Of a DNA stretch of 64,000 nucleotides, positions 56,099 to 59,646 are shown one piece after another. The position numbers and the translations under genes were made by a program. The notes below the pieces were generated by a model. It saw only the letters and a program-made list of their open reading frames with translations. It was not told the origin of the DNA and searched no databases. How positions within the stretch are numbered: the stretch's first letter is position 1; every line of letters begins with the position of its first letter. Origin of the DNA: an uncultured Algoriphagus sp. (GTDB lineage: Bacteria; Bacteroidota; Bacteroidia; Cytophagales; Cyclobacteriaceae); NCBI RefSeq assembly GCF_963974835.1, contig NZ_CAXBET010000009.1, positions 103,424 through 167,423 of the forward strand, written 5' to 3'.

Positions 56099-56215
56099 TT
56101 TCGCGCAGATTGACGAAGAAGAATACAGCGGATTTAATTGATAAGATATTTGAATTTAATCGACAATCATATCTGAAGAAGTTAGCGAAAATTGTCTTCG
56201 ATCATTTGCGGGAAA
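56099..56215. repeat. Degenerate solo palindromic element (CGCAGAT-type units)
   Basis: Left arm TTTCGCGCAGATTGACGAAGA versus reverse complement of right arm TTTCCCGCAAATGATCGAAGA: 16 of 21 positions match. Confidence 0.6.
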
Positions 56216-56374
56216 AACTTCATAATAATAAATCCTCGCCTTTGAATTATTGAAAAGTGAACTCTGTCTTTTCTCAATTGTCTTTTGGTACTTGAAAATT
56301 GATCATTTAAAGGCATTTTTAGCTACTTTTGCCACGCTTCAAGCAACCCAATATAACTTTAAATTATTCTTCGA

Positions 56375-57325
56375 ATGCGTGATATAAAATTAGTAGAAGT
56401 ACGGTCTGAGATTGCTGCGGGAACCCGGGGAGCGAGTATGGGAATCGATGCTTTGAAGATTGCCAGCTTAGATAAAAAGTCTGATTTCTTCACTCAGTTT
56501 GATCCAATCAACGTTCCCGATGCTAATAACTATCTCTGGAAAGGAAATAATTTCCCCCATGCTAAATACATCGATGGCGTTTATCAAGTGCTAAAAAATG
56601 TCTATTCCACTATCGAGTCTTTGAGAATGGAAAAGAAGTTTCCCATCGTTTTGGCAGGAGATCATAGCACGGCAGCTGGCACAATCATGGGAATTAAAGC
56701 AGCTGACCCTGAAAAGCGTCTAGGCGTAATTTGGATTGACGCACACGCTGATTTGCACACCCCATTTACAACGCCTTCCGGAAATATGCACGGCATGCCG
56801 TTGGCAATGGTTTCCCAATTGGACAACATGGATTGTCAGGTTAATGAACCCTCAGAAGAGACTTTGGCAATCTGGAAACGGATAAAAACCATAGGTGGTG
56901 AATCTCCTAAAATTGATCCTAGGGATATTGTCTTTATCACGGTTCGAGATACGGAAGCTCCGGAAGATCACCTAATCAAAAATTATGGAATTAAAAACTT
57001 CAGCACCAAAGAAGTTCGCTCCAAGGGAATTGATCAAATCTCATCTGAAGCTCTGGAAACATTGAAAGATTGTGATCAAATCTATATTTCATTCGATGTG
57101 GATAGCTTGGACAGTTCTATTTCTGTTGGTACTGGAACTCCCGTTCCTGATGGATTAACTGTGCAGGAAGCAATAGAATTAAACGTCAAACTTATCCAAG
57201 ATAAGCGGGTCTGCTGTTGGGAAATTGTCGAGGTGAATCCTACGCTTGACTCTGAAAATGTGATGGCTGAAAACGCCTTTGAAGTTCTAGAGGCAACTGT
57301 TAAGTCTTTGGTGGATAATTTTTAA
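56375..57325 (+). CDS. rocF: Arginase
   Basis: AGDHS, WIDAHADLHT, SGNMHGMP (arginase-type), SFDVDSLD, EVNP. Confidence 0.92.
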   Translation: MRDIKLVEVRSEIAAGTRGASMGIDALKIASLDKKSDFFTQFDPINVPDANNYLWKGNNFPHAKYIDGVYQVLKNVYSTIESLRMEKKFPIVLAGDHSTAAGTIMGIKAADPEKRLGVIWIDAHADLHTPFTTPSGNMHGMPLAMVSQLDNMDCQVNEPSEETLAIWKRIKTIGGESPKIDPRDIVFITVRDTEAPEDHLIKNYGIKNFSTKEVRSKGIDQISSEALETLKDCDQIYISFDVDSLDSSISVGTGTPVPDGLTVQEAIELNVKLIQDKRVCCWEIVEVNPTLDSENVMAENAFEVLEATVKSLVDNF

Positions 57326-57330
57326 TTTTA

Positions 57331-57849
57331 TAAACCGCGGAGTGCGCGGAGTTTTACGCAGAGACACTGAGAAAAAACAATTATGATTGACGAAGATCTC
57401 ATACTTGAAAATGAACTTGCCACAAGAGTTATTGGTATAGCTATAGATGTCCATCGTCAATTAGGGCCTGGACTTTTAGAGAATGCATATAAGCAAGTTT
57501 TGGCCTATAAACTCCAGAAAGCTGGTATTTTTGTAGAAGTAGAGAAAAAAATGCCTTTGTTAGTTGATGATATTAAGTTAGATGTTGGCTACACAATTGA
57601 TATTTTAGTGGAAAAAAAATTAGTTTTGGAATTAAAATCAGTCGAAATACTTAACGACGTTCATTTTGCCCAAACTCTTAACTACGTAAAAATCGGGAAA
57701 TTCAAATTGGGTTTGCTTATTAATTTTAATGTTTCCCAACTTAAATATGGAATTCAAAGGGTTGCTAATACAAAACCCAAAATATAATCCAATAACATAA
57801 CATGAATCAATTGCGCCCTCTGCGAAATCTTTGCGTGCTCTGCGGTTAA
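57331..57849 (+). mobile_element. Putative GxxExxY cassette bounded by ~40-bp modular inverted repeats
   Basis: Left arm 57331-57371 TAAACCGCGGAGTGCGCGGAGTTTTACGCAGAGACACTGAG; reverse complement of right arm 57811-57849 TTAACCGCAGAGCACGCAAAGATTTCGCAGAGGGCGCAA; one ORF between them. Confidence 0.6.
57383..57787 (+). CDS. GxxExxY protein (PD-(D/E)xK nuclease superfamily)
   Basis: VHRQLGPGLLENAY (GxxExxY), IDILVE and ELKSV catalytic motifs, QTLNY, GLLINF. Confidence 0.95.
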   Translation: MIDEDLILENELATRVIGIAIDVHRQLGPGLLENAYKQVLAYKLQKAGIFVEVEKKMPLLVDDIKLDVGYTIDILVEKKLVLELKSVEILNDVHFAQTLNYVKIGKFKLGLLINFNVSQLKYGIQRVANTKPKI

Positions 57850-57855
57850 AAAAAT

Positions 57856-59646
57856 ATGAACATACAAGAATCAATACATAACGGCATTCAGCTTGCCTTT
57901 CAGAATATATTCAACCACGACCTTCCGTTGGACCAGATCAGCCTCGCTCCTACGCGAAAGGAATTTGAAGGAACTTACACCTTTGTGGTTTTTCCTTACC
58001 TGAAAGTTTCGAAAGCAACTCCTGAAGCTACGGCAAATCTGATAGGAGAATACCTAAAGGAAAATGTAGCTGAAGTTGCCGGTTTCAATGTGGTTAAAGG
58101 ATTTCTGAATCTCGAATTGAACAACATGATTTGGGTGGACGTATTCCAAAAACTTATTGCCAACGAAAATGTAGGCCAACTTCCTGCAAATGGTCAAAAA
58201 GTAATGGTAGAATATTCTTCTCCAAACACCAACAAACCACTTCACCTTGGTCACTTGAGAAATAACTTCTTGGGTTTCTCAGTAGCAAATATCCTGGAAG
58301 CAAATGGCTATGAAGTCATCAAAGCCAACCTTGTAAATGATCGCGGAATCCACATTTGTAAATCAATGGTGGCTTATCAGCATTTCGGCAATGCCGAAAC
58401 TCCTGAGTCTTCAGGATTGAAGGGCGATCACTTAGCAGGTAAGTATTATGTGATTTTTGATGAAAAATATAAGGAGCAAATAGCTGAACTGAAGGCACAA
58501 GGACAATCCGAAGATGATGCCAAAAAGAACGCTCATCTCTTCCTGGAAGCTCAGGAAATGCTTCGCAAATGGGAAGCAAATGATGAGGAAGTTGTTTCTC
58601 TTTGGAAGCAAATGAATACTTGGGTTTACGCCGGTTTCGAAAAGACTTACCAGCGCATGGGAGTGAGTTTCGACAAGTATTACTACGAGTCTGACACCTA
58701 TTTATTAGGTAAGGATATCGTAACTGAAGGATTGGATAAAGGAGTATTTTTTAAGAAAGAAAATGGCTCTGTTTGGGTGGATTTGACAGATGAAGGACTG
58801 GACGAAAAGCTGGTACTTCGAGGAGATGGCACTTCTGTTTACATCACGCAGGATATGGGAACAGCTGATCTTAAGTATGATGATTTCGGAATAAGTAAAT
58901 CCGTATATGTAGTTGGTAATGAACAAGATTACCACTTCGATGTCTTGTTTAAGATCATGCGAAAACTTGGTCGTCCTTATGGCGAAGGTTTGTACCATTT
59001 GTCTTATGGTATGGTTGATCTACCGACAGGAAAAATGAAGTCACGGGAAGGTACCGTAGTTGATGCCGATGACCTGATGCAAGAGATGGTTGACACTGCT
59101 GAGCAGCATACCAAAGAGTTGGGTAAAATCGATGGTTTCAATAAGGAGCAGGCAGCTGAACTCTATGAAACACTTGGAATGGGTGCTTTGAAATATTTCC
59201 TTCTGAAAGTTGACCCGAAGAAGCGCATGCTTTTCAACCCACAGGAGTCCATAGAATTCCAAGGAAATACTGGGCCATTTATTCAGTATTCACACGCACG
59301 TATTGCATCTATTTTGAGAAAAGCCGTTCAAATCGGAGTAGATTACAAGCAAGCTGATTTCTCAAAACTTACCAAAGTTGAAGAGTCAGAATCAAGTTTG
59401 ATTTATCTTCTCAATGATTTTGAAAAAAAGATTTCTCAAGCTGGAGCTGATTATTCCCCTGCTATTTTGGCACAATACCTTTTCGATTTAGCCAAGGAAT
59501 ACAATAGATTCTATGCAGATCTTCCTATATTTCTGGAATGTGACCCAACAATTCTTGCTTTCCGAGTAGCGCTTTCGGCTCACACTGCCAAAACACTTAA
59601 AAAAGGAATGCAACTGCTTGGAATTGCCGTACCTGAACGAATGTAA
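57856..59646 (+). CDS. argS: Arginine--tRNA ligase
   Basis: SSPNTNKPLHLGHLRN (HIGH), KMKSREG (KMSKS), GNTGPFIQYSHAR. Confidence 0.97.
   Translation: MNIQESIHNGIQLAFQNIFNHDLPLDQISLAPTRKEFEGTYTFVVFPYLKVSKATPEATANLIGEYLKENVAEVAGFNVVKGFLNLELNNMIWVDVFQKLIANENVGQLPANGQKVMVEYSSPNTNKPLHLGHLRNNFLGFSVANILEANGYEVIKANLVNDRGIHICKSMVAYQHFGNAETPESSGLKGDHLAGKYYVIFDEKYKEQIAELKAQGQSEDDAKKNAHLFLEAQEMLRKWEANDEEVVSLWKQMNTWVYAGFEKTYQRMGVSFDKYYYESDTYLLGKDIVTEGLDKGVFFKKENGSVWVDLTDEGLDEKLVLRGDGTSVYITQDMGTADLKYDDFGISKSVYVVGNEQDYHFDVLFKIMRKLGRPYGEGLYHLSYGMVDLPTGKMKSREGTVVDADDLMQEMVDTAEQHTKELGKIDGFNKEQAAELYETLGMGALKYFLLKVDPKKRMLFNPQESIEFQGNTGPFIQYSHARIASILRKAVQIGVDYKQADFSKLTKVEESESSLIYLLNDFEKKISQAGADYSPAILAQYLFDLAKEYNRFYADLPIFLECDPTILAFRVALSAHTAKTLKKGMQLLGIAVPERM

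Follow-up and report, generated by a model that had tools for sequence, protein, structure and literature searches.

Three described systems are close functional analogues of the cassette treated here. In the REP/REPIN and RAYT system, a small enzyme gene is flanked by inverted short repeats, which are also dispersed singly and as doublets (PMC3116915). The Ssn proteins are GIY-YIG nucleases (cd10448) of about 100 to 150 amino acids (aa), and cleavage of NTS single-stranded DNA by them was demonstrated (PMC11893778). For the intervening sequences (IVSs) of 23S rRNA that bear an open reading frame (ORF), as in Leptospira and Coxiella, horizontal transfer to the same site between species was reported for Leptospira (PMC4990558). 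The cassette is located in a stretch of 64,000 nucleotides (nt) from an Algoriphagus species (Cyclobacteriaceae, Bacteroidota; genome of 5.33 Mb with 39.8% G+C), positions 103424 to 167423 of contig C9, and this whole stretch is called “the window” in the following. It is composed of a gene for a GxxExxY protein, designated gx, and two inverted “arms,” located between rocF, encoding arginase, and argS. A first-pass annotation of the sequence had listed it as a candidate for an undescribed mobile or intervening element. “Undescribed” agrees with the literature search, which found neither a description of the arms nor a function for GxxExxY/PF13366; matches to the arm sequences were unrelated primers, and a survey of PD-(D/E)XK proteins lists GxxExxY/PF13366 as “unknown” (PMC3424549). 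This kind of cassette is apparently undescribed in print, and it is analogous to the known nuclease-repeat systems.

With moderate confidence, gx and its arms are interpreted as a selfish element made of a nuclease gene and repeats, with recombination at the arms as its means of spreading. The cassette enters intergenic sites, is replaced in them, decays, and disappears from them, leaving gene-less arms. The interpretation builds on the architecture of the locus, the co-occurrence of gene and arms, purifying selection on the gene, presence/absence differences between genomes, decay of individual copies, and a cassette that is younger than its flanks, all of which were seen directly. The two arms of about 45 nt each and gx take up the entire gap between rocF and argS as a unit of about 520 bp, and the features are positioned in the window as follows.

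56375..57325, + strand: rocF (arginase), the upstream host gene (TIGR01229, E = 3.2e-68; PF00491)
57326..57374, + strand: left arm with T-run, AAC, and four CRCNRAG units (nhmmer E = 2.7e-6, genome-wide arm family)
57383..57787, + strand: gx, the GxxExxY/PDDEXK_3 gene, 134 aa (TIGR04256, PF13366)
57808..57855, − strand: right arm, mirror of the left arm, with A-run, GGTT, and four units (nhmmer E = 6.1e-9)
57856..59646, + strand: argS, the downstream host gene (TIGR00456, E = 1.5e-123)

An arm has the structure T-run, AACC, and four CRCNRAG units. The TAA stop codon of rocF (57323-57325) is positioned 8 nt ahead of the AAC that opens the left arm, with the T-run (57326-57332) in between, and the units CGCGGAG (57336-42), CGCGGAG (57345-51), CGCAGAG (57357-63), and CACTGAG (57365-71) follow, separated in 5′-to-3′ order by TG, TTTTA, and A. 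On the minus strand, the right arm reads AACCGCAGAG-CA-CGCAAAG-ATTT-CGCAGAG-GG-CGCAA (57811-57849, with units at 57838-44, 57829-35, 57818-24, and 57811-15), plus the A-run to position 57855, and it stops 6 nt short of the ATG of argS at position 57856. The inverted symmetry extends to the T-run and the A-run outside the arms. The inverted pair was recovered by a repeat search of the window, and 6 of the 12 CGCRRAG matches of the window fall inside the two arms; a total of 12 in 64 kb is the chance level, and the clustering is the non-random part. Between the arms, gx is the sole ORF of appreciable size on the sense strand, and the remaining ORFs listed there are antisense overlaps. The coordinates, the heptamer sequences, and the inverted layout that fills the gap match the description given in the first-pass annotation, and its assignment of the neighbors as arginase and argS agrees with the profile matches TIGR01229 and TIGR00456. 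A terminator scan found no terminator between rocF and argS; a sigma-70 promoter scan is not meaningful for Bacteroidota, and only the absence of terminators was used. Because no terminator was found and the cassette is placed flush with a stop and a start codon, it is probably transcribed together with its host genes and does little harm. A TAnnTTTG −7-like box is located at about position 56324, ahead of rocF.

Comparison of divergence between species indicates that the cassette is younger than its surroundings. Among the window genome, A. chordae, and A. winogradskyi, the synonymous divergence (dS) of gx was 0.22 to 0.29, compared to saturated values of 1.07 to 3.2 for rocF and argS (first 320 codons). 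Since dS of gx reached 0.9 to 1.2 in the comparison with A. antarcticus, gx does not have an intrinsic dS ceiling. The same contrast was found between A. alkaliphilus and A. litoralis, with dS of 0.29 for gx and saturated flanks. Sliding identity and mismatch density placed the block of high identity from the rocF stop codon through both arms to about 100 to 130 nt inside argS. Over 41 nt, the right arm does not differ at all between the three species, compared to a difference of about 15% in the coding DNA on its flanks. A second cassette on contig C16 (gx16), upstream of smc, displayed 95% to 98% DNA identity between the window genome and A. winogradskyi, compared to a pS (proportion of synonymous differences) of 0.48 for the adjacent smc and 58% to 88% identity for the gene on the other side. 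The gx16 gene of A. winogradskyi is frameshifted, and since this copy is a pseudogene, the similarity is not due to selection. When A. winogradskyi and the 30 genomes with returned loci were compared, only A. winogradskyi shared this cassette at smc; 30 genomes with returned loci were likewise covered at the moxR site described below. By these divergence values, the cassette is 4 to 10 times younger than its flanks at the two loci.

The history of gx also disagrees with that of its flanks. At a RocF identity of 93% to 97%, the gx protein was either about 90% to 93% or about 70% to 73% identical to that of the window, and two identity classes at like flank divergence mean two cassette lineages at the rocF-argS site. 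The flank tree has A. antarcticus as sister to genome G013 (SH-aLRT support of 94 to 95), whereas in the gx tree, A. antarcticus falls with the window type (support of 98) and G013 with the second type (99). In the approximately unbiased (AU) test, the grouping of A. antarcticus with G013 obtained for the flanks is rejected by the gx data at a p value of 3e-43.

The genes rocF and argS are adjacent throughout Algoriphagus, and the site between them is filled in some species and empty in others. Cassette and arms are present in the window genome, A. chordae, A. winogradskyi, A. antarcticus, A. halophytocola, A. litoralis, A. boritolerans, A. alkaliphilus, A. aestuariicola, several other Algoriphagus species, and Cognataquiflexum rubidum. 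Arm-free gaps were found in G022 (134 nt) and in eleven species of a small-genome clade (200 to 280 nt), so that genomes with empty sites, for which the first-pass annotation had suggested a search, do exist in the genus and the gene is not fixed at the locus. Between these two conditions are intermediates of decay. Of about 14 distinct gene-bearing copies at the site, about 5 are pseudogenes: A. antarcticus carries a stop codon at Q97, A. alkaliphilus and G010 have internal stop codons, gx of G001 is frameshifted, and that of G019 is truncated and accompanied by a duplicated right arm. In G014, the gene was lost and only the right arm is present. The right arm is tandem-duplicated at L009 (G019) and L014 (G002) in spacers of 796 and 1,000 nt, and these tandem arms in enlarged spacers indicate that arms can multiply locally. 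The cassette-free spacers (L016 to L023) contain a conserved element of about 35 nt, GTGCCACATATTACAAGAAGCCGTCTTAAATTTG, which ends in TAnnTTTG, a Bacteroidota −7-like box, and is judged by its sequence to be probably the argS promoter. This element is missing from the species with a cassette, and there the transcription of argS has to come from upstream.

Turnover was visible at other sites, too. The smc site contains a 162-nt arm-free spacer in most species, an ORF-less arm pair in G049, three arms in G024, and extra arms plus the cassette in the window genome; four close relatives have a different upstream gene and are uninformative. Relatives of the C16 protein with 80% to 84% identity are encoded at other loci in A. 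iocasae, an Algoriphagus metagenome-assembled genome (MAG), and Algoriphagus sp. CAU 1675, and the position of the CAU 1675 cassette is that of the ORF-less pair C1:999721-999855 in the window genome. This position, called the moxR site here, is directly upstream of a conserved TCTTAAAAAATC anchor that precedes moxR, as seen across the 30 genomes. Depending on the species, the site is empty, or it harbors a CGCAAAG-type hairpin (in the window genome), a CGCGGCG-type hairpin in one of two sizes, or the 3′ remainder of a gx gene together with a single arm; in Algoriphagus sp. CAU 1675 it harbors a full cassette. Decay of a single insertion cannot explain these alleles because two unrelated arm types occur at the same site. 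At C13:97480-98320, the window genome contains a ParD/ParE-like pair where A. iocasae (L143) and the Algoriphagus MAG (L134) carry a gx cassette; this toxin-antitoxin pair is preceded by the periodic units ATTGGAAA/ATTGAAAA.

To survey the association of gene and arms, 49 relatives of the window gx and 80 of the C16 paralogue were retrieved with their flanks, and inverted arms were scored by one fixed scheme with a threshold of at least 34, using random 380-nt segments of this genome as a control. Arms with this score were present at 40 of 48 loci in the window gx set and at 45 of 78 in the C16 set, in total 85 of 126 loci compared to 1 of 150 random segments, and the co-occurrence with GxxExxY genes that the first-pass annotation had proposed to check is borne out by these numbers. 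The loci surveyed are from Bacteroidota, Ignavibacteriota, cyanobacteria, a Clostridia MAG, Desulfobulbia, and other groups. Across all loci, the arms are arrays of three to five short direct units with a period of about 9 to 11 nt. The unit CRCNRAG is that of the window gx clade, including Algoriphagus, Aequorivita, Melioribacter, Nostoc, a Potamolinea MAG, the Clostridia MAG, and others, with 5 to 30 copies per 500-nt flank versus about 0.6 expected. More distant GxxExxY proteins (39% to 47% identity) are accompanied by CGCAGAT or CACGGAT units, and a few loci by CGCAACG or CACAATG units. When the unit type (..RAG, ..GAT, or ..AYG) was mapped onto the protein tree, 4 changes were required, compared to a mean of 9.8 for shuffled types, and none of 300 shuffles gave a number as low. 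Because the unit type tracks the protein tree, gene and arms are inherited as one unit, and such tracking is what a specific recognition would predict, without proving it.

Within Algoriphagus, a GxxExxY gene is present in each of the 26 genomes that have two or more arms, while none of the 6 genomes without the gene has more than one arm (Fisher p = 0.001), and one complete 5.0-Mb genome contains neither gene nor arms. As a separate observation, GxxExxY proteins that are 50% to 69% identical to those of Algoriphagus and have the unit CGCAGAG/CGCAAAG were encountered at loci L040, L041, L043, L054, L059, and L157 to L194; their hosts are Bacteroidales, a MAG labelled Limnohabitans, a Clostridia MAG, and many Nostoc. 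This occurrence suggests that the whole cassette was transferred between phyla, although some of the MAG labels may be binning errors.

The arms of the window are not confined to the rocF-argS gap. The first-pass annotation had described them at this locus only, which holds for their presence, but they are members of a genome-wide family. A search for heptamer clusters followed by an nhmmer profile identified 29 copies in the genome at E < 0.05 and about 40 at looser thresholds, with the right arm of the window as the top-scoring member. The consensus is T-run, AACCGCRRAG, NN, CRCRRAG, NNNN, CGCRRAG, NN, and CGCAA. The spacing is 9 nt between the units of a pair and about two helical turns between the pairs. 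Information content peaks at the outer AACCGC and drops inward. With few exceptions, the copies are located between genes, and their T-run or A-run immediately adjoins a stop or start codon. The majority are solo arms, others form ORF-less inverted pairs (C1:999721/999827) or small clusters (C14:50584-51128). This C14 cluster comprises five arms in 550 bp without a GxxExxY ORF, among them two near-duplicate head-to-head pairs about 430 bp apart, and looks like a local duplication of an ORF-less element. Three GxxExxY genes are present in the genome, so that arms outnumber genes by about 10 to 1; two of the three, at the window locus and on C16, are flanked by CRCNRAG-type arms, and the third, on C4, by arms of a different unit, CGCGGCG.

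The protein encoded between the arms is a candidate nuclease. It matched TIGR04256 with an E value of 1.7e-37 and 128.3 bits (cut-off 35) over profile positions 2 to 115 of 116, and PF13366 (PDDEXK_3) with 8.1e-36 and 123.4 bits (cut-off 22). In an alignment of 37 sequences, G30, E33, D73, E83, K85, and Q97 were invariant and Y36 nearly so (at least 90%), so that the GxxExxY motif and the PD-(D/E)XK residues are intact, as read before from the sequence alone. The AlphaFold model (predicted local distance difference test score, 92.7) displays an alpha-beta nuclease core, and the predicted fold is that of a minimal Cas4/RecB-like PD-(D/E)XK nuclease core with D73, E83, and K85 in place. The best fold match in the PDB was Cas4 SSO0001 at a template modeling (TM) score of 0.55 and E = 8e-3, which is weak; other matches were generic PD-(D/E)XK nucleases, and a PDB sequence search with the protein gave no match. 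Since the fold matches are weak and generic, no specific function can be transferred. Intact copies are under purifying selection with omega values of 0.03 to 0.14. Pfam and NCBIfam matches were to PD-(D/E)XK only, with no match to an HUH/Y1 transposase or to GIY-YIG, and no DDE, HUH, serine, or tyrosine transposase is encoded in the cassette. The 134-aa protein is the sole ORF product found in the unit, in keeping with the earlier statement that a transposase is not present. PADLOC returned no match for the gx protein and a weak Cas4 profile match only for the paralogue.

How the protein acts on the arms and how the cassette is transferred, we infer as follows. The element would have entered the spacer between rocF and argS in an ancestor of the Algoriphagus species and later have been exchanged between species at the same site. 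The PD-(D/E)XK protein, probably as an oligomer, may recognize the phased CRCNRAG units and nick or cut the DNA in or close to the conserved outer end (T-run-AACCGC). Recombination would then repair the breaks at the arms, or the hairpins that the inverted arms extrude in single-stranded DNA, and this repair may copy the cassette into the homologous locus of incoming or resident DNA. Such a homing-like copying by repair would account for a spread at the same site with short co-converted flanks. Internal deletions between or within arms could leave ORF-less arm pairs and solo arms, and the flush placement at stop and start codons together with the missing terminator would make the insert non-polar. 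The first-pass proposal of a minimal mobile unit, the nuclease of which recognizes the repeat array, stands in outline by co-occurrence, empty sites, youth, tree conflict, and decay, with the binding or cutting of the arms by the nuclease as its putative part.

Several points weigh against the interpretation as a selfish element. No transposase, integrase, or other recombinase is encoded in the cassette, and binding or cutting of the arms by gx is putative. When filled and empty alleles were compared at rocF-argS, smc-up184, and upORF-moxR, the spacers were not alignable, and neither a target-site duplication nor a junction could be defined. Ordinary homologous recombination between related species could also generate young tracts, and a young tract that coincides with the cassette was seen at two loci only. 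The conflict between the trees is asymmetric: the flank data reject the gx grouping only modestly (AU p values of 0.02 and 0.07), the tested groups were named after the trees had been seen, and in the flank tree, internal branches are short and synonymous sites saturated. Finally, genome size and clade are confounders of the correlation between arms and gene within the genus.

Alternatively, gx may be a domesticated nuclease of the Ssn/NTS kind that serves its host by acting on the dispersed arms, for instance on single-stranded DNA in transformation, repair, or replication. The arms around its own gene would then be the result of a common origin or of autoregulation and not of mobility of the unit. 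An excess of arms over genes of about 10 to 1 with arms scattered at gene boundaries, the low omega values of 0.03 to 0.14, and the presence of a gx gene in genomes with arms would all be in line with such a function, as would the maintenance of the cassette at rocF-argS across many species and a second genus, Cognataquiflexum, and for the GIY-YIG Ssn nucleases with their NTS repeats, this layout has been proven (PMC11893778). It is nevertheless considered unlikely. About 5 of the about 14 gene-bearing rocF-argS copies are pseudogenes, G014 keeps one arm only, some species have neither gene nor arms, the cassette is younger than and incongruent with its flanks, and arm types turn over at a single site. 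Such a cycling of gain and loss is not expected of a useful host gene, and this counts against domestication.

A different function of the arms would be at the level of RNA. They may pair in a rocF-gx-argS transcript and form a duplex that is cut by RNase III, either to separate the messages or to excise the cassette RNA, as also proposed in the first-pass annotation. The arms form the closing stem of the minimum-free-energy fold (z of −3.4), rocF and argS are not separated by a terminator, RNase III cuts the terminal inverted repeats of IVS elements (PMC4990558), and the four-helix-bundle family of 23S IVS ORFs shares the cassette design in the same genome. By eye, all five differences between the window arms within the first 19 nt were G-U compatible on the plus strand. 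This pattern was dropped as evidence for an RNA because it failed in nine orthologous loci, where 24 differences were G-U compatible on the plus strand, 35 on the minus strand, and 79 were transversions, which means no compensatory or strand bias and many broken pairs. A stem requires neither conserved heptamer words nor their phase, yet both are conserved and the same word recurs across phyla, and most family members are solo arms that are unable to form a stem. Rfam gave no match, and a permissive scan of the cassette yielded chance-level matches only. The RNA explanation is not supported by these data and rated as highly unlikely. The third proposal of the first-pass annotation was a toxin or defense cassette. 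In this view, the nuclease would be a toxin or an anti-phage effector held in check by the arms or a host factor, possibly for addiction, and would settle in intergenic niches like toxin-antitoxin modules. The ParD/ParE-like pair at C13:97480-98320 in the place of gx cassettes of A. iocasae and another Algoriphagus and the weak Cas4 profile match of the paralogue might speak for it. It is hardly credible because no antitoxin or partner ORF is located inside the arms, gx had no PADLOC match, no defense-island context was seen, and the frequent harmless pseudogenization speaks against addiction.

Another feature of the window may be related in type to such arms.

56099..56215, no strand assigned: degenerate ORF-less palindrome, inverted repeat with 21-nt arms, 76% complementary

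This palindrome sits in the divergent spacer between an aminotransferase gene and rocF, and its ends (TTTCGCGCAGAT ... ATTTGCGGGAAA) resemble the CGCAGAT-type arms of distant GxxExxY genes from Bacteroidaceae and Chitinophagales.

Outside the window, the genome contains eight genes for proteins of TIGR02436 (“23S rRNA IVS protein,” a four-helix bundle) at the following positions.

C1:1310066-1310386, C4:25123-25443, C7:159203-159526, C7:206403-206723: four-helix-bundle genes
C2:4631-4948, C6:170101-170415, C6:38451-38768, C13:27038-27349: four-helix-bundle genes

All eight are bracketed by inverted unit arrays with a period of about 8 to 9 nt, and each cassette has its own unit (GTACAAAG, GATGTCGG, ATTTGA, GTTAA, ATTCGA, or TCAA). 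Since array arms are present at all eight genes, an unrelated protein family shares the cassette design. In a generalization that is tentative and rather doubtful at present, GxxExxY cassettes would be a pan-prokaryotic class of mobile elements of about 0.5 kb, in which a Cas4-like nuclease of 125 to 135 aa reads the end arrays, drives a homing-like spread, and sheds gene-less hairpins; the four-helix-bundle cassettes would be a parallel class, and the classical rRNA IVSs would be those that landed in rRNA.

GxxExxY/PF13366 is a very large family, annotated in thousands of genomes and often in several copies. If its members are enzymes of repeat-armed selfish elements, a common annotation mystery would be explained, and so would a widespread class of repeats between genes in Bacteroidota, cyanobacteria, and further phyla. 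It would also provide a lead on the 30-year-old puzzle of the origin of ORF-bearing rRNA IVSs and a new family of small nucleases with a programmable-looking modular recognition of arrays of 7-nt words, as Ssn does for single-stranded DNA. The locus described here contributes dynamic evidence in the form of a young cassette at two loci, a tree conflict, a decay series, and a turnover of arm types at one site, and the cultivable Algoriphagus type strains form a set for testing the idea.

In transposons with terminal inverted repeats (TIRs) and miniature inverted-repeat transposable elements, with Tn7 and Mu as examples, each end has several phased binding sub-sites, and ORF-less derivatives outnumber the autonomous copies. 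The gx cassette shares the terminal inverted repeats with phased sub-sites and the majority of ORF-less derivatives, and the maximum of conservation at the outermost bases of TIR transposons corresponds to the AACCGC end of the arms. It differs in that the unit is without a DDE, serine, tyrosine, or HUH transposase, and its 520 bp are far below the size of any autonomous insertion sequence known to us. Free-standing homing endonuclease genes, which include the PD-(D/E)XK enzyme I-Ssp6803I, are small nuclease genes that spread to the same site in related genomes. Like gx, they are younger than their flanks, have short co-converted tracts, and pass through a cycle of invasion, degeneration, and loss. 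We know of no homing genes with repeat-array arms or ORF-less dispersed derivatives. In the case of gx, a recognition site in the empty allele is hypothetical.

The remaining three systems differ from the gx cassette in their defining properties, and because the respective tests (HUH, GIY-YIG, and location in rRNA) failed, the cassette is placed outside REP/RAYT, Ssn/NTS, and IVS. The 23S IVS resembles it as a unit of about 0.45 to 0.75 kb with one small ORF between terminal inverted repeats at a conserved site, and it is co-transcribed with its host gene, as is probably the gx cassette. The IVS ORF is of another family and located inside rRNA instead of between rocF and argS, and the gx arms conserve words rather than base pairs, unlike the IVS. 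In REP/RAYT, as with gx, a dispersed intergenic repeat flanks a single enzyme gene, and the repeat type goes with the enzyme clade. RAYT, however, is an HUH/Y1 single-strand transposase and gx a PD-(D/E)XK protein, and a REP is a short palindrome with a GTAG head, while in the gx arm, four direct heptamers are arrayed in phase without forming a palindrome. In Ssn/NTS, again, a small nuclease gene is framed by a multi-copy repeat across phyla, with a specificity that depends on the homologue. Ssn is a GIY-YIG nuclease with demonstrated cleavage and the NTS a hairpin-forming unit of 20 to 50 nt; gx is a PD-(D/E)XK protein with a putative recognition of its arms, which are heptamer arrays. Ssn was presented as a host modulator of transformation, whereas the gx cassette displays a cycle of gain, decay, and loss.

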